Below are positions 3,101 to 34,738 of a stretch of 34,793 nt of DNA, in pieces (positions within the stretch are counted from its first letter, which is position 1; each line of letters opens with the position of its first letter). Source of the stretch: Kipferlia bialata. Taxonomy: Eukaryota. The stretch covers positions 1 to 34,793 of the forward strand of contig BDIP01000064.1 in the NCBI GenBank assembly GCA_003568945.1. The letters are read 5' to 3'. The translations under genes and the position numbers were made by a program. A model generated the notes under the pieces. It did not search any database. It was given only the letters and a program-made list of their open reading frames with translations, and was not told the DNA's origin.

Positions 3101-3187
3101 CGTGCCTGGTCTCTGAGCTGATCCTCCAGCTCATTCATACTGGCCATCAGTTCAGACACCCTGGTCTGGGCAACAGCGGCAGCCAGC
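112..3187 (-). CDS. Multi-exon coiled-coil protein, partial at both ends (13 exons, 363 codons visible)
   Basis: Exons in transcript order: 3106-3187, 2808-2906, 2626-2681, 2351-2466, 2151-2200, 1970-2038, 1692-1808, 1430-1545, 1168-1216, 1004-1066, 796-858, 534-674, 112-180. All splice phases match with no stop. Translation is E/R/Q/L/A-rich and heptad-like (LAAAVAQTRVSELMASMNELEDQLRDQ...AECDSLRHLVSRLKAEKEEEIRHAQDARKESAKLKNDLK...EILALKDAQERLNVQSSDATELK). Family not recognised. Confidence 0.88.
2907..3105 (-). other. GC-AG intron in the coiled-coil gene
   Basis: Minus strand GAC CAG|gcacgg ... ctgacaccag|GAG CAG. This donor gives the phase-0 join. Reading on runs into ATAC-type intronic sequence and a stop. 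Confidence 0.7.
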
Positions 3188-3247: not shown

Positions 3248-3295
3248 CAGGGTCTCAGTCTAGAATGTATGTTAGTCTGTGTATTTATTGTATAG

Positions 3296-3330
3296 GAGCG
3301 ACGCCTCATGTCTAATCTCCCAATCCCTGG
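3296..3330 (+). CDS. Tentative upstream exon of the BLTP1-like gene (SDASCLISQSLG)
   Basis: tatag|G AGC GAC GCC TCA TGT CTA ATC TCC CAA TCC CTG G|gtattg. The phase-1 donor matches the phase-1 acceptor at 3980, giving LISQSLGRGLSILLN. The branch motif is weak. Confidence 0.5.
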
Positions 3331-3439
3331 GTATTGTCCATGTATGTATTTATATACAACCCCCACACTCTACTGAGTCCAAACTAGGATAATACGTCTC
3401 TCACACTTATTATCTCTCCCCGTCAGGCCTATCACCTCC

Positions 3440-3924
3440 CTCTCTCACCCCCTAGGCAGATACCCCATCTATTAGTTGGAACACCCTCTCTCAGAGAGTC
3501 CACCCTACTCCACATACTCCCTCCCCCCCCTCTCCCTCACCTCTCTTAGTCTCTCATCTATATCACCTCTCTCACCCACTAGGCAGGTGTCTGTCCATTA
3601 TGTTTAACATCCCTTCTCTCTCTTCCCCATCTCCCTTGCCTCTCTATTATCTCTCTCATCTATATCATCTCTTACCCTCTAGGCCGGGGTATGTCCATCC
3701 TGTTGAACATCATCTCTCTCTCTCTCACACACACACACACACCTCTCTCTCTCCTGTCTTTCTCTCATGTATCTCTCACCCCCTAGGCAGGGGTCTGTCC
3801 ATTCTGTTAAACAGCATACTCTCTCTCTCTCTCTCTATAAGTATATATTTCCCTCTCTCTTTCACTTATCTCTCACCCCCTATGCCGGGGCCTGTCCATT
3901 CTGTTGAACAGCATGTCCAAGGGA
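3440..3924 (+). repeat. Five tandem ~100-bp copies of acceptor + 5' part of exon 3980-4066
   Basis: Exon-start copies at 3456, 3583, 3683, 3787 and 3884, each after a ctcaccc/cttaccc..tag-like motif and separated by (CT)n tracts. Confidence 0.9.
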
Positions 3925-3979
3925 TACTCTCTCTCTCTCTCTCTATGTATATATATCTCATATATATCTAACCTTCTAG

Positions 3980-6900
3980 GCAGAGGTCTGTCCATTCTGT
4001 TGAACAGCATGTCCAAGGGAGATGCCCTGTTCAGAATTGGATATTGCAACGTATCACCTTTGACAGGTATATATATATATATATATATATAGTATATGTA
4101 TAAATAAATATTTGTATTGTATTCAAGGGACATGCCCTGTTCAGGATAGGGTACTGCAATGTGTCACCCCTGACACGTATGTATCTATCTGTCTATATAT
4201 TTATATTAGTTTACGTAATAGTAACAAGTATATTTATGTAGTAGTACGTGGGTGTACATTTACACTCAGGACGTGTCATGGTTAGGCAGTTTGAGTACAC
4301 CACGGCCTCTGCCAATATCCACATGTCCACACTGAGACTGGAGTTCAAGTACTGGGCACCCAGTGCTACGCAACAGGTATGTATACATATAGATGTGTTA
4401 TTATATTAGATATTTTATGTTGTGTATTTATATGTACCATCGGCATATATATATATATATATCTAATCCTCAGGCCATCTCAGCCCACATTGCCAAGACC
4501 AGTGGGCCACACGGGTTCAGGTACTCTTTTGTACAGTATATTGGTACTATTGTGAATGAGTGTGTTCACCCTTGTCACCCCTCTCACACCCTGCATGTTT
4601 CTGTCTAAGCTCCACCTGCAGAATCTGTGTATATATACATTGATATTCATTACATACAATGTAATATACGCATTGTTAATGCATAGTGCATACTATGCAT
4701 TCTATACTCACCCCAGCATGTTTCTGTCCAAGCTCCACCTGCAGATTGTGGGCCTGGACGTCCATTGTTACAACAACAAGAGTGCATACGAGTACCTAGG
4801 TAATTATCCATCATATCCCCACTTCTGTGCGCACACTGCTGCAACTGAATATACATCGTTGCCATATTATATATATTATTATATGTTTACTATTGTATTC
4901 ATAATACATTCCATTGTTACAACAACAAGAGCGCATACGAGTATCTAGGTAACCACTCCTTTCACATCTCTCTCTAGTATGTGTAACTGTTATAATGCAT
5001 AGACCCCCCCCCCTCCTTCCTCCTCTATCTTCCAACCCTCAGAGACTACCATAATATCTCTTATATCAGTGTCAATTAATTTCAATATCTCCTATTTATG
5101 ATACTGACTCACCCTCAGAGACATTGCAGTGCCACATCACAGACCAGGAGGCACCCACAACTAAGGTAGAGTGTAATATAGAAGAATACAATAGTATAAG
5201 TAGAGTATATATATATATATATTATAGTATGTACCTCTACATATATCACAGCCCAGGAGGCACCCACAACTAAGGTACATGCATTGTCACCTGATGAGCT
5301 CTGCCAAGTCGACTACACCTAATGTGTCCTCTCTTTTGAGATCTCGATGTGATGAATATTATCAGCGTGCATACTATTCATATCTCTCCAACCCCAGGTC
5401 CCTCCCCCTGTCATCAAGGGAGAGATGCCATCCCTCCTGTCACTCCTGGGCAGTGTCTCTTTCGATATCGCTAGGTGTGTAAGTATGTGTATACAATTCA
5501 CACATGTACATATATATGCATTCTCTATCCCTTTCCCCTCCCTGCTAACGGCCTTTAGTACTATCCAGTATACCGTATATGCCTAACCCCCCTCCCCCCC
5601 ACCCGCCCCGTGTGTTCCAACTCCTCTCTGCTAGTATCCTTCAGCACTATCCAGTAGTATATACCCCCCCCCCCTCTGCTAACCCCCTCAGTATCCGCAT
5701 GGTGTGTTCCAACCCCTCTCTCCTAGTAGCACTGAGGATAACAGCCCAGACCATGAAGGGACACCACATATTCACAGAGGACACTAGGAGTCATGATGAC
5801 GTGTACAGGTATTGATATCTATTCATATTAGTTGTAGTATACGCTATGATGTAGTATATACCACATACTAACAGAGGACACACGGAGTCACGATGTTGTG
5901 TACAGGTGTGGTTATCTACATTAACGATGTATAGTATTCTGTATCCGATGCAGACTCAGCGCTGTCCAGATATAGAGATACTACTCTCTTGTGTATAGTA
6001 TATTTGCCATGCTAACACCAGTAATGTATCAGACCTCATGCTGACCGAGTGCTGTGCTGATATGATGGAGAACTGCTACCACGACCCCTTGTTCAAGGGC
6101 AGAGTGATGCAGAAGAAGAGAAGCAAGGTATGCATTATTGTATATAGTCTATACCATGTATATATATGATATATGTATGTATGTATATATACACATATTA
6201 CCTCTGTTCAAGGGAAGAGTGATGCAGAAGAAGAGGAGTAAGGTGTGTACTGGATTGTCAGAGTTACGAGTTGTTGCCTCTCTCCCCCCCCCCCTCGTCC
6301 CTTCTTCCTCTTCTACCCCTACCTCTGACACTCTCCTTTTGTTCAGCACAATTTCTACTGCGTAGTATACAACGCATAGTATTGTTTCCTTCTCTCCTTT
6401 GATAATCTATGCTGTACATTGTATGTGTCTCACTCCAGCGCTCTGCCTTTGTTCAGCCCACACACTATATATTACACTACTTATAGTGGATACTATATAT
6501 ATTCTATGCTGTACATTGTAAGTGTCTCACTCCAGCGCTCTGCCTTTGTCCAGCCCAACTACTGTACTATGTTTCCACATATATATGTCATGAGATTATG
6601 TGAATGCGATACAACTCTCACTCCAGCGCTCTGCCTTTGTCCAGCCCAATGTGCCAATCAGGGCAATGTCGGCATCCAATATGCAGGTATGGGTGGAATG
6701 TATACAACTATATATAGTATCAGTATATTGAATTTGTACTTAGATATCAATCTTATTACATATCAATTGTAATATATGACTATAAGTTCAAGCATCTATT
6801 ACTCACCCTCTATACTCTTCAATTGTACTTACCCCCTTGGGCCAAAGACATGGGAGTATATGTTGCAGTATCTCTCTATATATATCTCTCTTTCTCTATA

Positions 6901-8922
6901 TATATAGATGTTACTGACCCAAGGCCAGGGGCAAGGGTGTCTCCAGGAGGCAGAGAGGGGGCAGGGCAGACAGAGACGTGCTACTGCCACCCACCAGAAG
7001 GTACTTAAGTATTGTATGTATACATATATATATATATGTGTGTGTGCATAACATATGTACACATATGCACTATGTATACATACCGTAACCCCAGGGGCTC
7101 TGTGACCAGGCTGGGTACCACCTATATATATACTATTTGTATGTGGAATATACAGTGTATATCCATTCACCCCAGGGGCTCTGTGACCAGGCTGGGCCCC
7201 CAGTCCAAGCACAAGTCCAGGAGGAGAAGTGGCATCAGATTCGATCAGGTGAGGAACAGATGTATGTATTTCTATCTTAGTTTCTAATCTATAACCCACG
7301 GACCATGAACCACATGTTCCAACAGATTCTTGTGGAATCATGGTATATGTTTGTTGTATTAGTTCTCTTTGGTTCTACCTACTGATGAGTATTGTATTCC
7401 TTACCCCCTAGGCCATGAACCACCGTCTGCAACATATGTCTGTTGTGTATGTGTTATATATTGCATTCCTTACCCCTTAGGCCATGAACCACCGTCTATT
7501 TCTTGAATCCATAATTTGTTAAGTATAAGTGTTTATTATTGGTCTCTTATTCCAAGATGAAGGTAGAATGTATAGCCCTTACCCCTTAGGCCATGAACCA
7601 CCGTCTGCAACAGGCCCTGAATGAGGCAGAGGAGGAAGACCACGCTGACATACTGGGTCTGGAGTGCGATGCACAGGTATTGATTGAAATGATGAATACT
7701 ATTATACTAGTATATTATTGTATATATACCATTACTGTTCATAATGTATGTGGGTGCTCTGGAGTGTGATGCACAGGTACTGGGTATATACGAGAAGGGC
7801 CCCGTGCATTAGTATACAACCATCTATCTATCTATATTCATCTCACCCCAGGCCGAGAAGGGCCCTGCCACAGTGTCTGAGATACCCTACGACCTACTGG
7901 TCAATGGAAGTCAGAGGCCAGCGAGGTATGTGTGCTATATACCCCCCCCTCCCCCCCTTACCATATATATGGGTTCCTAGTATATCCTGTATGTACCCTC
8001 CTCACCCTAGGATCCGTCTGGCCTATGCACCAGCTCTGAGGATCAAGCACATCAAGGACAGCCCAGGTATTCTAATCCATACACTAATTGTATTATTGAT
8101 GATGATATTCATCATACGTATACATATGTATATACTCCCCGGAGGATCAAACATATCAAGGAGAGCCCTGGTATGAGTATGTGAATGACATATTATAATA
8201 CGTATATATACACATACATACCCCCCACACCAGGCATATGCCCCCAGTCTCCCTCCCTCCCTCTTTCTTCGTCTCCCTATATATATCCATTCTCCACTCT
8301 ATACCCGTATCATAGCCTATTATCCTTAGGGATGTGCCTTTGTCCCCCCCCCCTCTCAATCTATATGTATTTCTCATTCTTAGGCATGTGCCCCCGGTCT
8401 AACCCATCTTTCTATCTTTCTCTCTTTCCATTATAATACTATCTCTATCTATCTCTATGTATTTCTCATCCTTAGGCATGTGCCCCCGGTCTGCCCCCAC
8501 CAAGCCAGGCCAGGGGAATAGCCCATCCGTTAAGGTATTTCATGACTGAGCCCTCCACAATATCCCTCTCTCCATATCCCCCACTCTGTCTCCCTATGTT
8601 TATATTCTTACACTATTACTCCACCCGTGGCATGGCCGAGCCCTCCACCATATCCTCCTTTATATATCATCNNNNNNNNNNNNNNNNNNNNNNNNNNNNN
8701 NNNNNNNNNNNNNNNNNNNNNNNNNNNNNNNNNNNNNNNNNNNNNNNNNNNNNNNNNNCTTACCCAAGTACTCCACACGTGTCATGGCCGAGCCCTCCAC
8801 CATATCCTCCTTTGCCGACCTCACTCTCTCTCTCTATATATATGTCCTTATATGCATATACTCACCATTAGTACTCTTCTAGGGGCATGGCCGAACCTTC
8901 AACCATATCCTCCTTTGCCGAC

Positions 8923-8954
<32 letters not shown>

Positions 8955-9286
8955 GTCCTTATATTCATATTCTCACCCTCAGTATTCTTCCAGAGGCATG
9001 GCCGAGCCCTCCACTATATATCATCTCTCTCTCTCCCTATATATACACTAACCCTCAGTATTCTTCCAGAGGCATGGCCGAACCTTCTACTATATCCTCC
9101 TTTGCCGAGAGGGATGTCAATGTCCCAGTGGCAGCTGATGGCATCAACCCCCCAGACTACAACGATGACAATAGGTGGGTATTGGTTTTGAATATTGCCA
9201 GTCCACATCTGACTGTATATGCACATTATTCTATTTCAACCTCATATTCTGTTACCTGCAGCCCCCTGTGGCCGTGTGACATGACC

Positions 9287-9326
<40 letters not shown>

Positions 9327-11199
9327 CACTATTCTTATCCCTCAGGCCCCTGTGGCTGTGTGACATAGTTATTCTCTCGCTGTCTGTCTCTCTCTAGCAC
9401 TGTTAACCCCAGCCCCCTCTGGCTGTGTGACATGGTCTTCTTCGACTCCCACCTGTGGTACTCACCCACGCACGACAAGGTATACAGAGTAAATATATAT
9501 ATGTTCATAGTAATACCTATATATATATACATATGAAATGTATCAGTCTCTGCCCATAGAGTGCTAGGCTAGGCACTCTCTACTTGTGTTAAGTCATCTA
9601 TCTGACACTCTAGGAGAGAGGCCGCATCCAGCGCTTCTTCTACCCCCCTACCTACCAGCCCAAGGAGATATACGAGCCCACCGACTGTGTCAGAAGGCCA
9701 ACCTGCATGACTACAGGTGGGGATGGCTCTCTCTCTCTCTCTCTCTATCTCTCTGTCTTACAAGCATTCGCTTTGTTTGTTTTTCGCTATTGCCCTTCGT
9801 TCAACGCTGCTTAATTCTCACCCCCCAGTTATGCACTTTGAGAATCTCAAGCCCTACCTCTACCCTGCACCCAAGATGGTTGAGAACCCACTCTCCAAGT
9901 CGGTACGCTATATATATTCTAGGCCATTAAAATGTGTGTTATCAGTATGCTATGCATACAAGATGGTTGAGAACTCACTGTCCAAGTCGGTATGATTTCC
10001 AGTGATATATCAATGAACTCTTCTTTCGAAGGAAGGGTAGTTATAGACATTGATATATATTGCTTGATGTTTTGGGTTCTATTATTATCCCGGTCTACAT
10101 CTCACCACCTAGCAGGCCAAGCCGACTTCCCCTGCCTGCCGCATCACATACTCCTTCCGCAACACAGACCTCGACCTCGATCTACTCAGGGACCACCCTG
10201 TACTCAAGTGGAGGATTAATCACGGGGCAGGTATTACACATATGCATATGCATACACATACAGTATGGTGTTTCATTTGACCTGTGTCTGCATCGTCCTA
10301 AAGTGGAGGATCAACCACGGGGCAGGTATCCTGTATTCATATACCATATGCGTTTCTTTTGACAAACAGTCAAAGAGTATCTCCCTTTCCCTCTCTAACC
10401 CTTAGATGGTGCCCATCTGGACATCCCCCAGTATCAGTATCATTACATATATACCCACTTATTCATTTAGACCCATATCGCTGTGTATCCCTTCATCTAT
10501 CTAACATTCTAGATGGTGCCCATCTGGACATCACCCCAGAGGGAGTGGACCTGGACCCAGCATCAGTCCTCAAGGTATAGTATCATTTCGCTTCTGTCTT
10601 CAGTGTCCAGCTTTTCAATTTCATTGTAATCCCTTTCTTCAGTGTTTTCTTCCTCTCTTACCAGCATCAGTGCTCAAGTTATGTATAGACTGTGTAGTTC
10701 AGTATTGTCGTGGTCAGGACTATCGCATAAGGGCTTCTATTATTGTTGTGGATCTCTTACTCTTAGGAGCTCATCACCAATCCGTTTGGCGAGTTCATGC
10801 AGGACAAGGGGCCCAGGGTGCAGGTAGGGGGTCACGGATCGAATACCACTATGAACGACGGCCAATAGTGTTTAGTGTACAATGACATTAGTTGGGTTTT
10901 CTGACGCTAATTTGATGTGAGTTCAATTACATTCATATAAACTGTCTAACCTTCCAGGAGCCCACTGGTCCTCAACACTATGTATCCGAGGCCCCCTCCT
11001 CCCACATACCCTCTCTCTCTATATATAAGTAGAAACATATATATATATTGTATGTATGACTTATTTGACCTTAGGAACCTACGGGTCCCCAGCACTATGT
11101 CTCCGAGGCCCCCTCCTCCCACATTCCATCCAACGCAGACAGGATGAGGAGGCAGCACAGCCTGATACTGACCATGAGGGTATGTCATATATAGATATG

Positions 11200-11230
<31 letters not shown>

Positions 11231-14200
11231 ATATTCCATCCAACGCAGACAGGATGAGGAGACAGCACAGTCTGATACTGACTATGCGGGTGGGTTTACA
11301 CATATACATTCAAATACTATCATCTATTATTCTTTGGGTATATGCGTATATGGTGATGATACACGGAGCATCCTCAATATCAGTCTTACACCCAGGCCGG
11401 CAGTGAGGTCTCCATGCGTATTCCCATGGCTGTTGTGGCTCTGGCCCCATCGCACGGACAGGGCTACACAGTGGGGGGGAGGTAGGACATTTACATATTA
11501 CGTAGTGATTACCACATCACTGTGTGGTATATGTGTATGTATAATTCATTTTCTTATGTTCAGGGACGAGACCTCCTACTCCAACAGGACCGCTGAGGCC
11601 GCCGGACCTGACCCAGGCCAGCTGGTCAACCACGTGTCTGTCACAACAATCAAGGTGGGTTGTGCATACATATGTTTTTCGTAAACTTTCAATAATAGGT
11701 TCAAGCGTTTTGCGGTTATTGAGATGGAATAGACTTCTTGTTCTTCCTTGTTGTGTCCTGACCCCATAGGCCTCTGGTCTCTCTGTGACCTCTCTAATCA
11801 CTTATCATATCGACATTCACAACAAACATGATAGTATGAATGATCCTCCTTACCCCCCAGGCCTCTGGTCTCTCTGTGACCTCCTCTCTGACCAACCATG
11901 AGTTCATGGTGGCAGAGGACTTTGGGATGTCCTTTAAGTAAGTGGCATACTCTATATACTATACCAGTGCTCAGAATATATATATATGTAATCATATTGG
12001 ATCCTTGATGGTAATATTTAATAGTTATTATTCATGAGCTCGTGGTGGCTGAGGAATTTGGCATGTCGTTCAAGTGAGTACTTCGTATAATTTACCTCTG
12101 GTACTATATATATATATATATGAATATATATATGTTCTTGAAGTTATTGGTAAATATGAGTCCTTCTATTTATCCCTCACCATCAGGATGAAGAGTGGCC
12201 TTGAGGTGGATGGTGCCCAGGAGTGGACAGGGGACATCAACCTAGGGGATACTAGACTGGTGCTCACAGCAGACTACATCGCAGAACTCACAAGGTATGG
12301 ATATATACACACACACACACATATATATATATCCGTTCTCGAAGAATAAGTACCTAGAAGAATTGTAGTAGACTACAATCGCAGAGCTCACTAGGTAAGA
12401 CATATAGATGTATACGTATAGTCTTCTATACACTAAATCAAATATTTATATATACATAAGTATTGATATATAGCAGACTACATCGCAGAGCTCACAAGGT
12501 AAGACATATATTGGTATATCACAAATAGATGACTTATCGTCTTCTTCTCTTGTTTTGCGTTGTACTGTTCCTTTCTCACCCCCAGGCTCTTTGCCGACAT
12601 GGGCTCCCCCGACCCCTTTGAGATCCACAAGGAGGGGGTGTCCCCTATCCTCATGTTTGCACCAAGGTATAAACATCAATACATTCCTCCATTGGTCGAT
12701 TCTCTTGTCATCCAGTAATTTGTCGCAGTTTCTCTATGTATATGTTGTTTCTGCTGTATCTTACCCTAGGATCCAGGAGTACAACATCAATCTGACCAAC
12801 TTTGAGATCATTGTCAACGTCAATGAGAACAACGTGACGGAGAGACTCACCAACGTGTCGAGGTGGGTGATTGTAAGATTTTGATTTGAATGAATACAAG
12901 TGTTATTAGGATTGCCAATTACTGTCATCTACATCCCTATATGTTGTTTCTGCCTGCTTGAGGTGGTAAGATGTTTTCCTCACCTCAGGATGGCCAGTGC
13001 CTGTCCCGGTCTGTTCCCCAGGGCAGTGCCCATCACAGAGGACACTGACCCTAACACTAAGGTGGTGATATTCATAGTATATGCATACAGTAAGGACACA
13101 CTATATGTCTTGTCTTAGAGGACACATACCTACTTGTGACCGACAATCCTTATATATGTCTTGATTGTTCCACTCACCCTTCAGCTTGAGCTTGGCTTAT
13201 TCACAATGTGTACATATACATATCTATATGGTATATATATCACTCTCTCACCCCAGCTTGTGCTGCATGGCCCAGAGTGCCAGGTCAGCATGACCATACC
13301 AAGGTCAGTGGCATGTAGTCACACATATATATAGATATACACCTTCCATCACATATCCCTAAATAATTACTATTCCCTTCTAACCCCAAGGAGTCTAAGT
13401 ATACGGATGTTATTCTTTGATATTTCCCTAACCCCCAGGGAGTTCTACAAGGGCGACGCCCCTGTCTCTGAGACTGGCCACCAGATGGGGTCAGTCCCTG
13501 AGCCAGTCACAGACTTCACAATGGAGGTATATATATGTATATATCACAATGGAGGTATCGGCAGTACTATGGCGCGGAATATTCTAAACATGTGAAATTT
13601 GTTCCCAAATCTGTGTCTCACCCTAGGTTGTGCTCCAGTCTGTCTCCGGTACCCTCTGCTATGGTAGACACGTCGAGGCCACGCAGTACATCCCAAGCAG
13701 GTACTTGGTCATCTATGAAGACACCATGTAACTTCATTACTAAACACCTCTCTATATTGTAATTCCATATGTAACATATCGTCTCACCCCTTAGGGCTGT
13801 CCAGCTGCTGGATGTCCACAGACTCAACATCGGGGGGTCATACCTTACGAAGAGGTATGTGCATACATGGGTATTCCAACTGTATTCTGTGAATCTATTG
13901 TACTATTTTATTATTGTATTATATGTTAGGCATATCATCCTTACCCCCAGCAAGGACTGGGCCGGTCCCAAGCCAGAGAACAACGTGTTCTCCCTTGACA
14001 TTGCATGCTTCAAGCCAACTGTCTCTGTGTCAGGTATCAACATTGGATCTAGACTGTTGTCAATAGAGTGTCTAACTCTTCGCTGAATGGAGTTGGACAT
14101 TCCCTCTTCTCAACCCTAGGATATGCCATTATGTACTACTGGAGACTGGTCGACAACCTGTTTGGATCCACCAAGCTCTTGATGAGTCCACAGGTGTGTA

Positions 14201-16130
14201 TTGCAGTATATACTATGATTCCTTGCAGACATGAGTGTGGCGTATTGTGATAATTGTTTGTACCCAATTCCTCACCTCCAGGAGTATATGCTCCTCAACT
14301 GTGTCAACGACAGAGCTGCTGCATACGAGACAAAGGTAAACCCAAACACTCTAATGTCTCCACCATATTTCTACCTGCATATTCCAAAGATTCAACTCAC
14401 TATTCAATGACTTTACCCCTCCTATACGCATGATTACCCACGTTATCTTATTGTTTGTTCTCCTTCATTCCACTGACCAATAGGCCAAGCAGGGCACCTG
14501 TGATACTGACAACCTCGGGTTCCAGATGGAGCTGACTGTGAGGGCCCATGACCTGCTGGGTCTGTTCCCGGTGGTGCAGCTGCACTCAGTCACAGATAGG
14601 TTAGCATGTATATCGATCAATACTATAATAATAGGTAAATATTGCCTCTTGTGCAGCTGCACTCAGTCACGGATAGGTATATTAGCATAATGATTTCATA
14701 CATTACTCTCCATTAGAATATTATTGATATGATACATGATGGGTCTGTTCCCAGTGGTGCAGCTGCNNNNNNNTATTATTGATATGATACATGATGGGTC
14801 TGTTCCCAGTGGTGCAGCTGCACTCAGTTACAGATAGGTATATTAGCATTATTATATCATATATTACTCTCAATTAGAATAATATTGATATATTTGCATA
14901 TTCGTGCCTCACCCCAGGTCCAATCTGTTTGGCATCAGGGCCACCAATGCCAAGTGTGACCTGAGTATGAGACCGGAGTGCATGGACTTGATAGTCAGCT
15001 CTAACCACATCAGGTAACTCATATGTTTGTAGTATCCTATCCTCCTCTGCTTGTAGTTTGTTGAGACCCTTTTGATCCCTAATGTGTTAATGTTTTCTTC
15101 TCACCCCTCAGAGTGCACTCCTCCCTTGATGAGACCCTCCTTGAGTCCTCCTGTGGCAGCATCTCCTTCCTCAACTACCAGTTCCTGACAATGCGGAATG
15201 GCCCAATCAACCATAGGTATGTCAAGGAATCAAAGCATCATCAATGGTAGAACCAACATATTATACATCAATCGAAATGTTTAGTAACCCTATTGGTATC
15301 TCACCCTAGGGTAAAGCACGATGCTTGCCTGGGTACCGTCAAGCTGGACTTCACAGGGAGACAGCTCGGTGCACTGGCCAAGGGTGAGACTTAGCTAGTC
15401 ATATATCATTTAGATACTATTCTGTGACTTCGGGTCCTGCCCTGACTGCCCTCCACTAGCTATCTATTGATACATTAGGATACTGCATGTTTCATTCATT
15501 TACTCACAGGCATCTCCCATCTGATCTCCTCCATGAACCACCCACCCTTCGATGTCCCCCACCATGGGGCAGACAGTGACAGCTACGCAGCCATTCTGTT
15601 TGGAGCAGCTGAGGTATATACACCCGAGATGAATAGTCTCTAATCTTATCAACTCTACATCTGGTATACATTTCATTGTGGAATACATACGATCCTTCTG
15701 ACCCCCAGGCCGTGTCCACCTATGTCTCTAAGGAGGCAGCCAAGGCAGCAGCCAGGGGTGGAAAGGATGGGAACACGGCAGAGGGAGAGGGAGAGGGAGA
15801 GGGAGAGGGAGAGGGAGAGGGAGATGTGCATGTCGATGTGGAACTCCATCCTGAGGAGGACTCAGTGCTGGCAGCATCAGAGCCAGAGCCCCCTAGGTAT
15901 ATTCTAACTCTCACATTAGATGTTCTTATTTGTTATGTTCTCACTCCCAGGCCATTTGTGTCCCTGTACTTCAGATCTGGCCCCGTTTCATGTACGTTCC
16001 TGACCAGCCAACAGCTGCAGGGGTCCATTGCGACACAGCTCGCCATCACGACAGGTATCATGTCCAGTCACTCCTGATATACTCTACACGCATCTCTCTC
16101 TCAATCTCTCTCATACTCAATCTGTATATA

Positions 16131-26000: not shown

Positions 26001-29000
26001 AACACTTATTGTATTTCACACTATGAGATTAGGTCACTTGCCCGTGTTTGTCTGTCTGTTCTTAATTTGTCTGTGTATTTGTCTGCGTTCTCACCCTCAG
26101 GGTCCCAGCCAACCGTGGCCTGACCCCCACTTCGTCCCACTCTGGCCTGCCTACCCCAGACTCCAAGTCACTCGTCCTGGACGTCGATGTTAGACAGGTA
26201 CGCATTCCTTTGTAGAAATATGTAATAGTATTGTTTGACCTGTATCATAGTTCCTTGTGCTGTATGCTGTCGTGTAGTTACCCTATACTCATCTCACCCA
26301 GGCATTGGTCGTCACCCACCCTTCCCTGATCACCACTGCAGTCGCCACACTCAACTTCTACTCGACAGCTGTGGAGTCACTCAAGGACAACCAGCGGAAC
26401 ATCGCTAAGGTACTCCTGATACATTTGTCTCAGTGTAATTGTCAATTGTGGGATGCATTCTTTATTTTATATTGTTCATGTCTCACCCCTAGGTCCTCAA
26501 GCAGCAGGAGACCGAGAAGGTGTTGGGGATGGCTAGCAGAGGACTCAACAAGGCGCAGGTATGGGAAGAAGAAGAATTGAAGGAACATGATTTGCACTTA
26601 CTATCTCCTCTATTCATACAATAGTGCGACATGTCTTATTCCCTCACCCCCCAGGAGCAGATGATTGACATGCTGCAGGACAACCTGACCGACCTCGTCT
26701 TCAGCCTGTACATATCAAACATCAACATATCACTGCTCTCGGACAGAATCTACAGGTGAGAGACTACTTTGACGTAGTACACTCCATATTAATGATGTTC
26801 TGGTTCTTAGAATCTGACTCTAGGGCCACTCTTGGATGTGACAACCTTAGTTTCTTTGGCCAGTACACCAAGTCAGTCTCTGCCAACATGGCCAGATCCC
26901 TGATGCAGCTGACTGGTCAGCTCACTAGCGACGCTTTCCAGGTATTTGTAGTTGTATTTATTCAGTATTGCTCTCTATATTCCTTTTCATGGTTGCCTCG
27001 TTGTTCAGTATTTCTCTCTACCTTCATCTAATTCATTTCTCACCTCAGATTGGCATTGCCTCTGCCTGTCTCGATGACCCTCTCCCCAGTGATACCTCGG
27101 TGGATCTGTTTGATGATCCCAGAGAGACCCTGGACTCTGTGAGGACATACACCAGGGTCACAAACATCGCTAACAGGTGCGATATGTATATTGTTTATAA
27201 CCTCTCTTTGTGTTACATATCTTACCCCCAGGGCCCGTGTCTCTGTGTCCTCCACCTGCCACTTCACGTCCACAAACACATCACTCAGGGGGGCACTCCA
27301 GGTGCGTATAGTATGTACTGTCTAACCCGTTAATCCTCTCTGTGTATGGTCAGTTTGATCCGCCACATTTGGATGCACTCTAGGTGCTTTTAGGCGTGGC
27401 ATTCTCTGTGTCCATGTCTGTATATATATATTAGCATGCCTCTCACTCTAGATGCACCTCATGGAGATGTCAGCGAGTGTCGACCCCGGTGTCCTGTCCC
27501 AGACCATGCACATCCTGACATCCGTGGCATCGTACCTCGCACAGGTACATATTTCTCTTGCATATTGTTTTCTACACGATTATTTTCTTACCGTGTAGGC
27601 TGGCAAGGGGGAGGCCGTGCCTGACAAGTCACCTTCTTCTCCTGTGGATGATAACGATGGGTTCGAGTCGGCCTCTGAGGACGACACTATACTCCTGAGG
27701 TATCATACTGATATATCACTGTAGTCCATGTATACATGGTATGTTATTTACCCATCAGGAGTGTACTAGGTGACACCCCTCGGGGTAGGGCCGAGGAGAA
27801 GGAGAAGGAGAGAGAGGCTGAGGCAAAGGCCGCCAGGGAGAGAGAGAAGGAGAAGGCGAGAGAGGCCGAGGCTGCCAAGGCTGCATCCCAGGCCAAGAAG
27901 ACTGTCTCAATCTCTGCCAGGTATAGTCATGTAGAGTATCACTGAAATCTCAAGCTATGATTCAGTCTTCTTTATACTAAACCCCTCACCCTCCCAGGTT
28001 CAAGACCGCTGAGGCCTCAATCCACATCCACGAGAGGATCAGATCACTCAACACAAGGTGAGTTTAGTAGGTGGTATTCTGGTACTATTAATCGAAATTA
28101 TGTAGTTTTCTGATAGTTAGGGAGCAGGAGGCTGCCTGTGTACTTTCTCTATCACACCTTATATCCACTATATAGTATTTTATCCCTATCCATCTGCCAC
28201 TTCCTTACTACTCAGAGAGCAGGAGGCTGCCTGTATTTATCAACGTGTTCTCTACATCCTCTCTATCACTCTATATACTGACCCTTAGGGAGCAGGAGGC
28301 TGCCTGTGTCCTTAGGTTCCCCTCTGTTATGGCCCATTGTCACCACCACTCAAAGACTAGTAGGACAAAGGCTACATCAGGCACCAAGGTACCTGTGTTT
28401 ATCTACGCGATGCAGTATATATATATATATACATATATATATATTCACTGACCCCAGGTCACTGTCGATGTTGACAAGATGCGCCTTGTCCTCCCCTCCG
28501 AGATATTCATCTTCATGAGTGCCCTACCCTCTGAGTGGGAGGCCTACCAGCAGTCGTGGGCTGAGCCCGACTACGACCTCCAAGGTGACCATTCCTAATT
28601 GATTTATCTTTAGAGTTGGTTTCAATGTTTCAGTGATAGCTTATTATTCATACTTTGAGTTGATTCACTGTTTCAGTGACAGTGAATGTCTAGTTTGAAA
28701 CCAATCTCACCCCTCAGATAGTGAGGACGATAGCACTGACGAGATGAACGTGTCTGACAGAGAGAGAAACAGACTCAGGTGGGGAAATAGTGTTAGCTAA
28801 GCTGTTGACGATACTTTCAGCATTCGTTTCTGATTTTCTTACTCTAGGAACCAGTCCAACAACATGTGGGGCGAGATCACTGCTGAACTCAGGTATGGTC
28901 ACCTACCTCAAGATTGTTTGGTAATTCATATTCACCCGGAGGTCTCGATTTATTGTGTCATTGATGTATTCCAACTACCTAATATGTTGTTACTATCCAC

Positions 29001-32000: not shown

Positions 32001-34738
32001 CGGTGTCATTGACAATGTCAAGGCATCCCTGAGAGCAGGTGTGTTGATTCCATCATTTTCTATGAAGATCCAATATCTCTATCATTTCCCAGTTATGTTT
32101 CATTATATACATCTTCTCACCCAGGTACCAAGTTGGGTCAGAGGGGTCAGAAGGCCCGCCGTGCCCTGCCTAGAACTGCATCCATGGCGGGGATCAGCAG
32201 CTTGAGTCAGAGGTATAGTGTATATAGATATATATATATTGGACCGGTATGATCTGACTATACCTTACTCATTATATATTTGTTACTGTATATGTGATAC
32301 ATGCATATTTAGCTCGCTTTGATCCACCAACTACATCATGCACTTGGTAGTGTCACTCACCCTTCAGGGACGAGAGACTCAGGGCCAGAGGCGGTATCAT
32401 GCTGGCTGGACTGGGACAGGTGTGGATATAGTATATGTGCACTCTAACATACCAAGTCTCTCTAGTTAGATTAGAGTCTAACCCAGGCTTCTGAGTCCAT
32501 CAGATCAGGCCCCCTCTCACTCAAGAGCATGTCTGCCACCACATCAGCCAACAAGGGTAGAGGGCCCGGGCAGGTACACATCGCGTAACTATAACCGTGT
32601 AGTTTCACACTCCTCTGACCCCAGGTCACCCTGCACACCCTGATGCCTGAGATGTGTGAGCAGAAGGACCTGGACGCTGTCACTCTGTTGAAGAGGTTCC
32701 TGCTGCCTAGCAAGGGACCTATTGCATTCAGGTGTGTTTGTGCCATTTGGCCCTGCTCTCTCTCTATACAAATACACTGTATGTTGTATGGTATCTGACC
32801 CCTAGAATCAGCACCCTCGAGGTCTCTCTGGCCAGTGACACTCTGGCAGACCCACTCTGGACACAGGTTCATACACACACAGACTCACACATATTCATAC
32901 ATTCATCTACTTGTGAGTCTCGAGTTCAATTGCATCCCCCGTCCCATCACCATCCTAGGCCCACGCATGTGTGCCAGACTTCCATTTCCAGTATATCATA
33001 TACATATGTATATTAATGTACTCCAAACTCCTGGGCTATCCCTTGCCTCATCCCAGGCCCACATGTCCGAGCTCCAGTTCCAGTACTATATGTATATATG
33101 TATATATGTGTGTGTGTGTGTGTACTCCAACCTACTCATAGACTATCCCTTGCCTCATCCTAGGCCCACATGTCCGAGCTCCAGTTCCAGTACATCCAGA
33201 CATCTGGGAGTGAGTCACTCAAGGGGACCAACGACATGAACCTGAGGCCTGTCGCAAGACTGCTCTCAAACTATACGGTTAGTAATGCTCCTCCCATCTC
33301 TCAGCATGTTTACTATTGCTCACTCTCAGGTTGGATCTACCCTTGGAGAGCTCTCCAAGGACATATCTCTGTCGTGCAGGGCCCTCTGCCTGGACGTTTG
33401 TCGTACGGGTCTAGGTATGACCTTTCGTAGTCATATGTAGAGGAAGTATTGCATTATATTCTTCTTATCCATTAGGCAAGGACGCCATCCAGAAACTCAA
33501 GTCCAACGAGACCTACGGCCCAGCCGACCATGAGCACGTGTACTTCAGTGTCCAGATGCAGCATGCTAAGGTACATGGAGTGTATACGTATGTATCTCTT
33601 GGTTAGTATGGTTTGGAGCATGATACTGACCCTTCAGAAGACCAATGTGGCTCAGATCGCCAGTCCCATCAAGTGGCAGCTCAGCTCTCTGGAGACACTC
33701 GTGTTTGCCAGGAGCCAGATGAAGGTAGAGACTCATTGACTCTATGTACTATATAATATATATATCCATTTCTTATATAGTTTAGTATTTATACTCTCGT
33801 TGTGTCGTACTTATTAAATTGGTAGTTTCCGACACCCAGGATGGTATGCTGCGCCCTGTCCTGCACCAGAATGTGGAGGGGTCTCTGACTGTGCATACGG
33901 ATGCCTTCCTGCAGCACACTAGGACCATGAGGCCCTTTGAGACACTCACACACGTCATATCAGACCTCATTGCGGGTTAGTTTTACAATATTCATTCCCC
34001 AATGTATTCAATACAAGTGTAGTAGTATCTGGAATTTTTACCTATCAATCTCTCGATTCATTCTCACCCTAGCCTTCAAGTCCCTGTCCTCCGATGGTGC
34101 TGACCCCTCCTACATGCAGATGGGGTCACAACAGACACAGCCATCCAAGGGAGACACGGACTTTGCATTCTGGGGTCCCGAGGAAGAGGAGGTACGGGGA
34201 CCAATACTCACTGCACTTGCATCTGATATTAGTGTCAATGAAATATATATATCAATGAAATATATATACATATATATGTATGCATCTGACCCCAGGAGCA
34301 GGAGGATGTGGCACCCAAGGACGAGGGAGAGGAGGCTAAGGTAAAGAGACATTTTTTCCAATTTTTCTACATTCTATGGCAATTCTCTCTGGATACTGTA
34401 TTTATCATTATTCATTAATCGTCATTTGAGGTATTCTTACCCACTAGGAGAAGGCCTCTCTGGATGAGTACCGCGAGATAGTGCACAAGGACAAGGTGGA
34501 CTTTGTCCACTTCCTGCAGACCAAGGTATACACACAATACACGCACCACCTTACTATATCATAAGTTCATCAACAATCCTTGTGAATGTAACCATTCTAT
34601 TGCTAACAACCCAGGTCAGAAAGGCTGACATTCTGCCCCAGTTGGCCAGTCTTGGCAAGGGCTCAGACCTGGTTGCTCCCATCTTCAGAAAGATCAGCAG
34701 CAATCCCACACTCTGGCAGGGCATCCATGGCAACACGG
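3980..34738 (+). CDS. BLTP1: Bridge-like lipid transfer protein, BLTP1/KIAA1109/Tweek/LPD-3/Csf1 family; 137 exons, about 4,000 aa, runs off the right edge
   Basis: Spliced motifs resembling the Csf1/BLTP1 N-terminal region as I recall it, in the expected order: GRGLSILLN..VSPLTGRVMVRQFEY..EFKYW; LHLQIVGLDVHCYNNKSAYEYL; HIKDSPGMCP; LWYSPTHDKERGRIQRFFYPPTYQ; FAPRIQEYNINLTNFEIIVNVNENNV; GYAIMYYWRLVDNLFG. Hand-chained in-frame GT-AG exons: 3980-4066,4270-4376,4474-4520,4717-4799,5119-5165,5398-5474,5692-5808,6022-6127,6627-6686,6924-7000,7176-7248,7590-7676,7852-7925,8011-8066,8476-8534,9059-9174,9413-9479,9614-9716,9829-9902,10116-10230,10513-10574,10767-10823,11075-11179,11396-11481,11564-11654,11861-11937,12187-12294,12586-12666,12770-12862,12989-13061,13257-13303,13439-13526,13627-13700,13795-13854,13951-14033,14120-14193,14282-14335,14484-14599,14918-15013,15112-15216,15310-15383,15510-15613,15709-15896,15951-16054,16239-16309,16406-16491,16591-16672,16780-16841,16961-17014,17111-17182,17243-17332,17477-17587,17682-17806,17878-17965,18130-18201,18328-18460,18553-18718,18833-18899,18983-19060,19148-19211,19285-19475,19541-19644,19752-19864,19919-20028,20114-20210,20346-20446,20507-20581,20684-20753,20826-20908,20967-21051,21137-21232,21315-21370,21560-21707,21773-21892,21957-22388,22457-22696,22792-23003,23071-23147,23217-23306,23403-23502,23561-23675,23764-23830,23960-24030,24228-24293,24415-24492,24554-24679,24843-24898,25091-25236,25332-25420,25561-25603,25701-25836,25910-25975,26101-26197,26302-26409,26493-26558,26655-26755,26824-26941,27049-27176,27232-27301,27452-27544,27599-27699,27759-27920,27998-28057,28289-28388,28458-28584,28718-28778,28848-28892,29011-29059,29160-29236,29302-29386,29470-29582,29678-29863,29986-30085,30283-30324,30480-30525,30722-30804,30863-30945,31006-31084,31212-31327,31463-31523,31655-31755,31834-31896,31971-32038,32125-32212,32368-32419,32487-32573,32625-32731,32806-32866,33164-33277,33330-33414,33476-33570,33638-33724,33840-33975,34073-34191,34296-34340,34448-34525,34615-34738. 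No database search was run. Confidence 0.85.
4124..4182 (+). repeat. Intronic copy of 3' half of exon 3980-4066 with donor
   Basis: KGHALFRIGYCNVSPLT|gtatgt vs KGDALFRIGYCNVSPLT|gtatat. Confidence 0.9.
4594..5280 (+). repeat. Intronic half-exon copies around exons 4717-4799 and 5119-5165
   Basis: 5' copy 4594-4623 (acceptor AG changed to TG); 3' copies with donor at 4911-4948 and 5245-5274. Confidence 0.88.
5871..6565 (+). repeat. Intronic half-exon copies around exons 5692-5808, 6022-6127 and 6627-6686
   Basis: 3' copies 5871-5905 and 6201-6242 with GT donors; 5' copies ctcactccag|cgctctgcctttgt near 6439 and 6536. Confidence 0.88.
7087..7500 (+). repeat. Duplicate acceptors + exon starts upstream of exons 7176 and 7590
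   Basis: ccccag|gggctctgtgaccaggctggg near 7095; ccttacccc.tag|gccatgaaccaccgtct at 7412 and 7481, degraded copy at 7302. Confidence 0.9.
8143..9020 (+). repeat. Cluster of half-exon copies: one 3' copy, three gcatgtgccccc starts, five MAEPSTI-type starts
   Basis: 8143-8170; starts near 8234, 8330, 8384; and 8542, 8617, 8769, 8872, 8983 upstream of the functional exon at 9059. Confidence 0.88.
8672..8758. other. Assembly gap (N run)
   Basis: 87 N inside the tandem half-exon array. Confidence 0.99.
9255..10680 (+). repeat. Half-exon copies around exons 9413, 9829, 10116 and 10513
   Basis: 5' copies near 9262, 9346 and 10406; 3' copies 9960-9989, 10295-10325 and ~10661-10678. Confidence 0.85.
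10958..11295 (+). repeat. Exon 11075-11179 sandwiched by recoded 5' half (10958-11008) and 3' half (11233-11289)
   Basis: Both halves encode the same peptide as the exon and keep the outer acceptor and donor. Confidence 0.92.
11760..12504 (+). repeat. Half-exon copies around exons 11861-11937 and 12187-12294
   Basis: 5' copy near 11770; 3' copies 12033-12073, ~12368-12394 and ~12472-12498. Confidence 0.87.
14651..14890 (+). repeat. Tandem copies of 3' end of exon 14484-14599 plus following intron, with a 7-N gap at 14767-14773
   Basis: gtgcagctgcactcagt.ac.gatag|gtatattagcat repeated at 14651 and ~14812. Confidence 0.85.
15781..15822 (+). repeat. Coding (GAGGGA)7 hexanucleotide repeat encoding EGEGEG...
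   Basis: Direct reading inside exon 15709-15896. Confidence 0.9.
28115..28240 (+). repeat. Two intronic copies of the start of exon 28289
   Basis: ag|.gagcaggaggctgcctgt near 28121 and 28217. Confidence 0.87.
30143..30190 (+). repeat. Synonymously recoded 3' copy of exon 29986-30085 with donor
   Basis: LAQFPFAAETLPPQ|gt in both copies. Confidence 0.9.
32950..33085 (+). repeat. Two upstream copies of acceptor + start of exon 33164
   Basis: ctatcccttgcctcatcc.ag|gcccacatgtccgagctccagttccagtac at 33057 (near-identical); degraded copy near 32959. Confidence 0.88.

Follow-up and report, generated by a model that had tools for sequence, protein, structure and literature searches.

Tandem duplications that arise while a break is repaired from a homologous template have been described in several systems. 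In yeast gene conversion, slip-back of the new strand gives microhomology-bounded tandem duplications with a mean length of 23 bp; where templates are 11% diverged, switching between them requires about 100 bp of pairing (PMC12891019). In C. elegans helq-1 mutants, failed SDSA and polymerase theta end joining together lead to tandem duplications (PMC8654963), and at mouse meiotic hotspots both joins between homologues and inserts of 15-349 bp with short microhomology have been reported (10.1101/2020.06.23.168138). Short intragenic duplications that change intron content and leave the protein unchanged are known from work on intron gain by segmental or tandem duplication (PMC3265369). Metamonads lack NHEJ, fornicates carry two Dmc1 and no Rad51A, and sex in metamonads has so far had no direct observation (PMC8516963); splice-site consensus in related groups is covered elsewhere (PMC6679479). 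The published account of the Kipferlia genome makes no mention of duplication, heterozygosity or ploidy in its main text (PMC5874029), and the openly accessible literature, searched at the level of titles and abstracts, yielded no earlier description of exon-flanking half-copies of the kind reported here.

The locus presented in this paper resembles each of these systems in part. The yeast repair duplications are alike in that a strand leaves its template and re-primes behind itself, with chimeras formed on diverged templates, but they are rare and average 23 bp, whereas here the units are about 100 nt, affect 25 of 137 exons and bring together two different coding versions (PMC12891019). The helq-1 duplications likewise begin with copying from a homologous template and end in a non-homologous join, and form tandem copies from about 100 bp upwards; unlike the present copies they come from a sister template, are identical, have a median of about 1 kb and require a repair mutant (PMC8654963). 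An insertion of the kind seen at mouse hotspots would split one uniformly diverged allele, whereas here the centre matches the inner exon (10.1101/2020.06.23.168138). In contrast to intron gain by duplication, no intron is gained and an existing one is lengthened by a dead half-exon; moreover, the stretch that is duplicated extends across a splice site already present, and its copies differ as alleles do (PMC3265369).

Results

The host gene

The window, that is, the whole 34,793-nt stretch of Kipferlia bialata DNA analysed here (contig BDIP01000064.1), contains a plus-strand gene that was modelled by dynamic programming and hand curation, with splicing predicted. The gene spans 3980-34738 and runs off the end of the window, with at least 137 exons and at least 4293 codons. 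The modelled frame contains no stop, the median intron is 100 nt and the median exon 86 nt, and for 121 of the 131 exons scored the branch motif and the AG are separated by 5-7 nt. Introns of this style are reminiscent of intron-rich fornicates such as Kipferlia. The automatic model held 160 predicted exons, 23 of which were taken out by hand, many being half-copies mistaken for exons. A search of positions 3260-3980 gave no convincing first coding exon or start codon in the right phase.

The protein may resemble the BLTP1/Csf1/Tweek lipid-bridge proteins. Pfam returned nothing relevant for 18 single exons (one weak CH_2 match, E 0.089), homologue searches with exon queries were empty, Atlas matches fell below 0.9 and were uninformative, and three exon queries against the PDB gave one chance match and none of relevance; as the queries were single exons, mostly of 27-45 aa (two of 70 and 144 aa), these searches constitute a weak test. 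On the minus strand, a probable GC donor at 3104-3105 (CAG followed by GCACGG) closes an exon of a coiled-coil protein gene, whose frame goes on into the next exon.

Half-copies flanking exon 3980-4066

The features around the first modelled exon of the 137-exon, 4293-codon open frame are as follows.

3583..3609, plus strand: oldest clear upstream copy, exon nt 1-27; 1 silent and 3 non-silent differences
3683..3709, plus strand: older upstream copy, exon nt 1-27; 3 silent and 1 non-silent differences
3787..3817, plus strand: older upstream copy, exon nt 1-31; 2 silent differences, AG kept
3884..3924, plus strand: upstream half-copy, exon nt 1-41; 38/41 identical, ending in TCCAAGGGA
3918..3924, plus strand: CAAGGGA at the end of the upstream half; recurs at 4014-4020 in the exon and at 4124-4130 in the downstream half
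3925..3979, plus strand: spacer, 3' end of the intron; rich in (CT)n/(TA)n, CTAAC branch motif at 3968-3972, AG at 3978-3979
3980..4066, plus strand: predicted working exon, 87 nt, phase 1, AG...GT, inferred splicing; RGLSILLNSMSKGDALFRIGYCNVSPLT
4067..4123, plus strand: spacer, 5' part of the intron; GT donor, (TA)n
4124..4176, plus strand: downstream half-copy, exon nt 35-87; 42/53 identical, starting with CAAGGGA, GT at 4177
4270..4376, plus strand: next exon, in frame with 3980-4066

The half-copies flanking exon 3980-4066 are a real feature. Together they tile the whole exon with CAAGGGA (7 nt) as their overlap, and this tiling, the overlap and the coordinates given for them in an initial annotation of the sequence all proved correct when re-derived. 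The upstream half carries three silent differences, at nt 3-8, and follows the exon letter for letter over nt 9-41; the downstream half carries eight silent and two non-silent nucleotide differences, all except one of them at nt 56-87, and its GT follows a C where the exon has a G. A recount of codons gave the same figures as before, with 10 synonymous (11 nt) and two non-synonymous, the latter being GAT to CAT at the base directly 3' of the overlap and G to C at the last exon base, which turns the split codon GGA into CGA. The silent pattern is seen in one frame only, that of the exon, and remains significant even against a 2:1 model (P 0.001), in agreement with the earlier proposal that the halves represent a differently coded, once-working version of the exon. 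The two halves differ from the exon at 3/41 and 11/53 positions (upstream and downstream, respectively), which is not a significant difference in divergence (P 0.085). The suggested shift of the outer version towards G/C is present at this exon, where 9 of the 11 silent changes counted by hand go towards G/C, one away and one is neutral, but it fails gene-wide (47 vs 29, P 0.05; unique changes 31 vs 29, P 0.90) and is therefore a local bias.

The AG at 3978-3979 is the predicted working acceptor of the exon. In front of the upstream half, AT (3882-3883) stands in place of AG, so that the loss of acceptor use already noted for this half is predicted from sequence. Reading of the sequence found no in-frame GT...AG pair that would remove the focal spacer. 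Intron gain by tandem duplication, as usually described, requires AGGT. The upstream half runs into TACTCTC, without a GT, so that no new GT...AG intron is predicted over the duplicated stretch. This half is the last in an array with a spacing of about 100 nt (3583, 3683, 3787 and 3884, with a faint fifth member at 3456). The junction of the copy at 3787-3817 resembles that of 3884, although it is 10 nt shorter, and the two spacers are alike over about 30 nt. The differences at 3583-3609 make what appears to be neutral decay visible in the oldest clear copy.

Partial exon copies across the gene

Each exon was aligned to its two flanking introns with a cut-off score of 24, the null for this detector having a 99.5th percentile of 24 and a maximum of 30 (n=1304). 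There were 57 automatic matches at a score of at least 24, of which curation kept 44 and set aside 13 that were weak, contained gaps or adjoined an N gap; among the latter, 11956-11973, whose score of 24 equals the null threshold, would count as a wrong-side fragment. The statistics all derive from a single gene in the window, and the copies are not independent of one another. The 44 partial copies belong to 25 of the 137 exons and crowd at the 5' end of the gene, affecting 18 of the first 27 exons versus 7 of the other 110. By region, 3400-12500 is copy-rich compared with 12500-34793, and the 13 exons examined in the head-to-head minus-strand gene gave one weak match. Both N gaps in the window (8672-8758 and 14767-14773) fall within exon-copy arrays, where copy numbers may consequently be under-counted.

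The geometry of the copies is regular. Upstream copies consist of an acceptor and an exon start and downstream copies of an exon end and a donor, a rule that 43 of 44 follow, the remaining one being internal; the unit measures 67-149 nt (about 100 nt) in 31 of the 32 nearest copies, and no complete exon duplicate occurs among the 44. Copies are confined to adjacent introns, since 18,358 pairs of exon and non-adjacent intron gave no match at a score of at least 32 and one inverted match at 28. The splice sites are mostly kept (AG in 21/25 upstream copies, GT in 16/18 downstream copies), and for 28 of the 32 nearest copies, splicing at the copy's own site would put the reading out of frame or bring in a stop. 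Eighteen of the 25 affected exons have copies on one side only and seven have both halves, including a second tiling sandwich:

10958..11289, plus strand: copy 10958-11007 (nt 1-50), exon 11075-11179, copy 11233-11289 (nt 49-105); 10 silent and 0 non-silent differences, overlap 2 nt

Several individual arrays deserve mention. Five upstream copies precede exon 9059-9174 within 8541-9174, and in this exon and its copies two silent sites (GAA/GAG and ACT/ACC) occur in all four combinations, which suggests exchange among alleles or copies. Three upstream copies (3884, 4594 and 7095) would add an in-frame, stop-free stretch if used, and two of these three have lost their AG (AT, TG); anecdotally, this may be a sign of selection in cases in which degradation of faulty mRNA offers no remedy. 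Four upstream copies (7095-7120, 28121-28145, 28217-28240 and 33057-33090) end at a donor-like GTAC or GTAT and look like micro-exons of 17-27 nt between two whole introns, inclusion of which would repeat the start of the following exon.

Silent bias of the copies

The silent-site signature extends across dozens of intronic half-exons and is well beyond chance. Compared with their exons, the 44 copies show 91 synonymous and 23 non-synonymous differences (pS 0.29, pN 0.023, pN/pS 0.077), which against a 2:1 expectation gives P 5e-20; the nearest copies alone give 59 vs 13 (P 6e-15), and third positions hold 89 of the 114 differences. The signature does not depend on curation, as untrimmed matches have a pN/pS of 0.11-0.19, and all 57 automatic ones together a ratio of 0.19 (P 1e-10). 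Simulated neutral decay passed through the same detector yields 0.47-0.54. Such a low pN/pS implies that both versions diverged while coding, and the copies probably come from diverged, working alleles.

Two other histories were considered and rejected. Neutral decay of a same-allele duplicate predicts a pN/pS of about 0.5 together with flanks as alike as the exon, whereas the observed ratio is 0.077 and the flanks stand at 0.55 against a null of 0.51. Mutual gene conversion between copy and exon alone would, by reasoning, still give a pN/pS of 0.5.

Intron flanks and the divergence gradient

Outside the exon part, the copies are close to random, with a median flank identity of 0.55 (null 0.51). 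Fourteen of 43 copy flanks lie above the null (P<0.05) and 29 do not; the former include both focal flanks, which are detectably related to those of the exon (upstream P 0.04, downstream P 0.002). The exon part is identical in 11 of 43 copies, most of which also have near-random flanks. A fresh same-allele duplicate would have identical flanks, and the near-random ones therefore speak against such an origin; the simplest source for the copies would be another allele whose introns had diverged beyond alignment.

Within the copies, differences lean towards the splice end (P 0.001-0.017 once 5-8 nt have been trimmed off), in a test that is somewhat biased because the copy ends were set by eye. 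Gene-wide and in both tiling sandwiches, the junction ends match the working exon and the outer ends do not. The focal outer version has nine third-position differences, at nt 5-8 and 56-80, and its 14 degenerate positions in nt 9-55 are clean (P 0.0016); the second tiling sandwich has the same clean centre (P 0.013). The combination of diverged ends and a clean centre indicates that the outer version is a chimera and not an intact older exon, and it places CAAGGGA within sequence that matches the inner exon.

The halves in the assembly graph

The presence of both halves in the DNA was assessed from the assembly graph of one DNA read run, which is possibly this assembly's own source and thus provides no independent check. 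A 33-nt unitig common to the upstream half and the exon has a depth of 867, and its four neighbours have depths of 386, 395, 408 and 431. On the path of the upstream half, the neighbour leading into the shared unitig has a depth of 431 and the one leading out of it, into TACTCTC, a depth of 408; the spacer 3925-3979 has a depth of 386, and the downstream half lies on one 730-nt contig of depth 417 that runs on into the next exons. Unique contigs nearby have depths of 354-430. A second run matched in one 66-nt piece and nowhere at the focal feature, a result with no bearing on expression. No variant letters are listed over 5.4 kb of the run, the run holds no paralogue or second allele at 85-90% likeness, and the graph contains no single record spanning the microsatellites to fix the order of the pieces. 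Both halves are therefore present at single-copy depth, on every chromosome copy, and do not result from haplotype misassembly. An artefact in which two haplotypes or strains were written in tandem would find some encouragement in the short-read-style gaps inside two copy arrays (8672-8758 and 14767-14773) and in a run that may have produced this very sequence. However, separate haplotypes would each show half depth, and the single-copy depths and lack of variant letters largely refute this reading, for which we retain only a vanishing probability. DNA-level pop-out between the 33-nt repeats was likewise rejected as a common event, since depths in and out agree within a few per cent and no joints are listed; contigs drop rare forms, so this check addresses frequent pop-out only.

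Tiling and target-site duplication

Seven exons allow the fit between halves to be compared. Their overlaps are 7, 2, -13, -15, -24, -45 and -51 nt, so that five of the seven sandwiches leave gaps of 13-51 nt; there is no fixed repeat length, and the maximum overlap is 7 nt. Exact tiling in two of seven is within chance under four nulls (P 0.11-0.40), and in the first 27 exons the seven sandwiches compare with 5.8 expected from independent halves (Fisher P 0.45). On the question raised by the initial annotation, namely whether halves abut or overlap more often than random breakpoints would, this one gene thus gives a divided answer: tiling is not in excess, yet the lengths of the upstream and downstream halves correlate (r 0.87, permutation P 0.006; r 0.86 with exon length partialled out; r 0.84, P 0.019, with the longest upstream copy), a post hoc result with n=7 and hand-set ends. 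The exact focal tiling may be a coincidence.

Insertion of a transposon or Introner leaves a short direct repeat flanking the inner segment. A direct repeat does lie on both sides of the insert here (CAAGGGA at 3918-3924 and 4124-4130), and the flanks rejoin into an open frame, but as sequence of mixed origin in which the differences cluster towards the ends. Furthermore, the insert is the locus's own exon, found nowhere else in the gene; the repeat is 7 nt in one case and 2 nt in the other; and there is no shared element or dispersed family (0 matches of at least 32 in the 18,358 non-adjacent pairs, window only).

Discussion

The half-exons described here are best approached through their silent-site signature rather than their tiling; it is the signature that we regard as the finding worth following. 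To account for it, we propose that the half-copies are stranded ends of a diverged allele, left when the working exon was copied in from another allele during recombination repair and synthesis slipped back by about 100 nt, a model to which, on the sequence evidence, we give an even chance. In this scheme, two alleles with a silent-site divergence of about 27% and largely unalignable introns would have met in one nucleus. A broken end would have invaded the other allele within an exon, the only good homology, after which the new strand would have run on, come off and either re-primed or been end-joined about 100 nt back. A slip-back into the upstream intron would produce an upstream half, and one from the downstream intron back into the exon a downstream half. 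Each half would thus be a chimera, with the old allele outside and the template allele at the junction, beside a whole template exon. CAAGGGA would then be the overlap of two re-copied stretches and not the footprint of an integrase, and the intron flank of the donor allele would have been lost from this chromosome.

Survivors would be expected only where one whole exon stays between the nearest acceptor and donor, rendering the halves inert. Because the copies' own splice sites, if used, would in 28 of 32 cases disrupt the frame or lead into a stop, we predict that survival depends on pairing of the nearest acceptor and donor. For the focal halves, we lean slightly towards two separate events, while a single repair event having made both is a serious possibility just short of even. 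The related focal flanks and the junction that recurs in an older copy suggest later unequal exchange as well. Counting against the model, the donor allele does not appear in the DNA run, in keeping with the absence of variant letters over 5.4 kb, and two metagenome scans for relatives using in-frame stretches gave 167 and 591 pattern matches, none confirmed. There is also a mismatch in size with yeast, in that the units here are about 100 nt and the exons have a median of 86 nt.

The main rival to slip-back repair between alleles proceeds in two steps, a same-allele tandem duplication over a splice junction followed by replacement of its outer part and flank through crossover or conversion with a diverged allele or, in a variant of the model, with a since-lost paralogue or homeologue. 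This route predicts the silent bias and the gradient equally well and is consistent with arrays of up to five copies sharing a junction, the four combinations of silent sites at exon 9059 and the identical exon part in 11 of 43 copies. However, it needs an exchange within a window of 20-50 nt soon after most duplications, it has to reconcile almost undecayed junction ends with 29 of 43 flanks not above the null, and a paralogue at 85-90% likeness is absent from the DNA run. It also needs the same diverged alleles. We consider it rather unlikely as the general origin of the copies, and a probable contributor, because an older copy shows the focal upstream junction again.

Two further readings carry much less weight with us. 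Insertion of a 199-nt piece of another allele (intron end, exon and intron start) into a staggered break with duplication of CAAGGGA, as the likeness to a target-site duplication in the initial annotation implied, could for example occur if a double-cut fragment of the homologue were end-joined into a break at the same hotspot. Such fragment insertion and joins between homologues are known from mouse meiosis (10.1101/2020.06.23.168138), and in its favour are the overlaps of 7 and 2 nt in the two tiling cases, insert sizes of 199-287 nt throughout the seven sandwiches and the correlated half lengths. The proposed likeness is nevertheless not supported by the outer version, which is unevenly diverged with a clean centre (P 0.0016 and 0.013), nor by the gaps in five of seven sandwiches; in addition, tiling lies within chance, sandwiches are not in excess, 18 of 25 affected exons are one-sided, the focal upstream junction recurs in the copy at 3787, and the mouse study saw no small duplication of the kind expected of non-homologous insertion into a homologue (10.1101/2020.06.23.168138). 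We therefore think this model improbable. We hold an equally low opinion of the reading in which the copies are or were translated, as alternative half-exons or as mutually exclusive whole exons later truncated, and were kept by selection on the protein. It would account directly for the silent bias and for the AG or GT intact in most copies, but there is no full-length duplicate, 43 of 44 copies consist of a splice end lying where its side of the exon predicts, splicing at the copy's site would break the frame or run into a stop for 28 of the 32 nearest copies, and at the focal exon the acceptor reads AT and the spacer has no in-frame GT...AG pair.

If slip-back repair between alleles is the correct explanation, roughly one exon in five carries a fragment of an allele about 27% diverged at silent sites, produced by a systematic slip of about 100 nt, and the half-copies would be a source of intron lengthening. 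The slips would mark the exonic start and end points of recombination tracts, exons being all the homology that remains between haplotypes, and sandwiches such as that at exon 3980-4066 would be conversion tracts of a single exon. Exon definition by the nearest pair of sites would be what renders the scars harmless. With around 40 intact decoy splice sites per gene, exon and intron definition can be tested against each other directly from RNA-seq; the same decoys mislead gene prediction, as the 23 of 160 predicted exons removed by hand illustrate. The copies would also represent a naturally occurring and frequent trace of break repair in a lineage that has neither NHEJ nor Rad51A.

More broadly, one homozygous genome would show where recombination broke and rejoined alleles in the past and would contain samples of alleles since lost, and outcrossing between very divergent haplotypes would be recorded in the single genome of what is likely a metamonad. 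It is plausible, if still on the doubtful side, that the introns of this protist hold a readable fossil record of sex.
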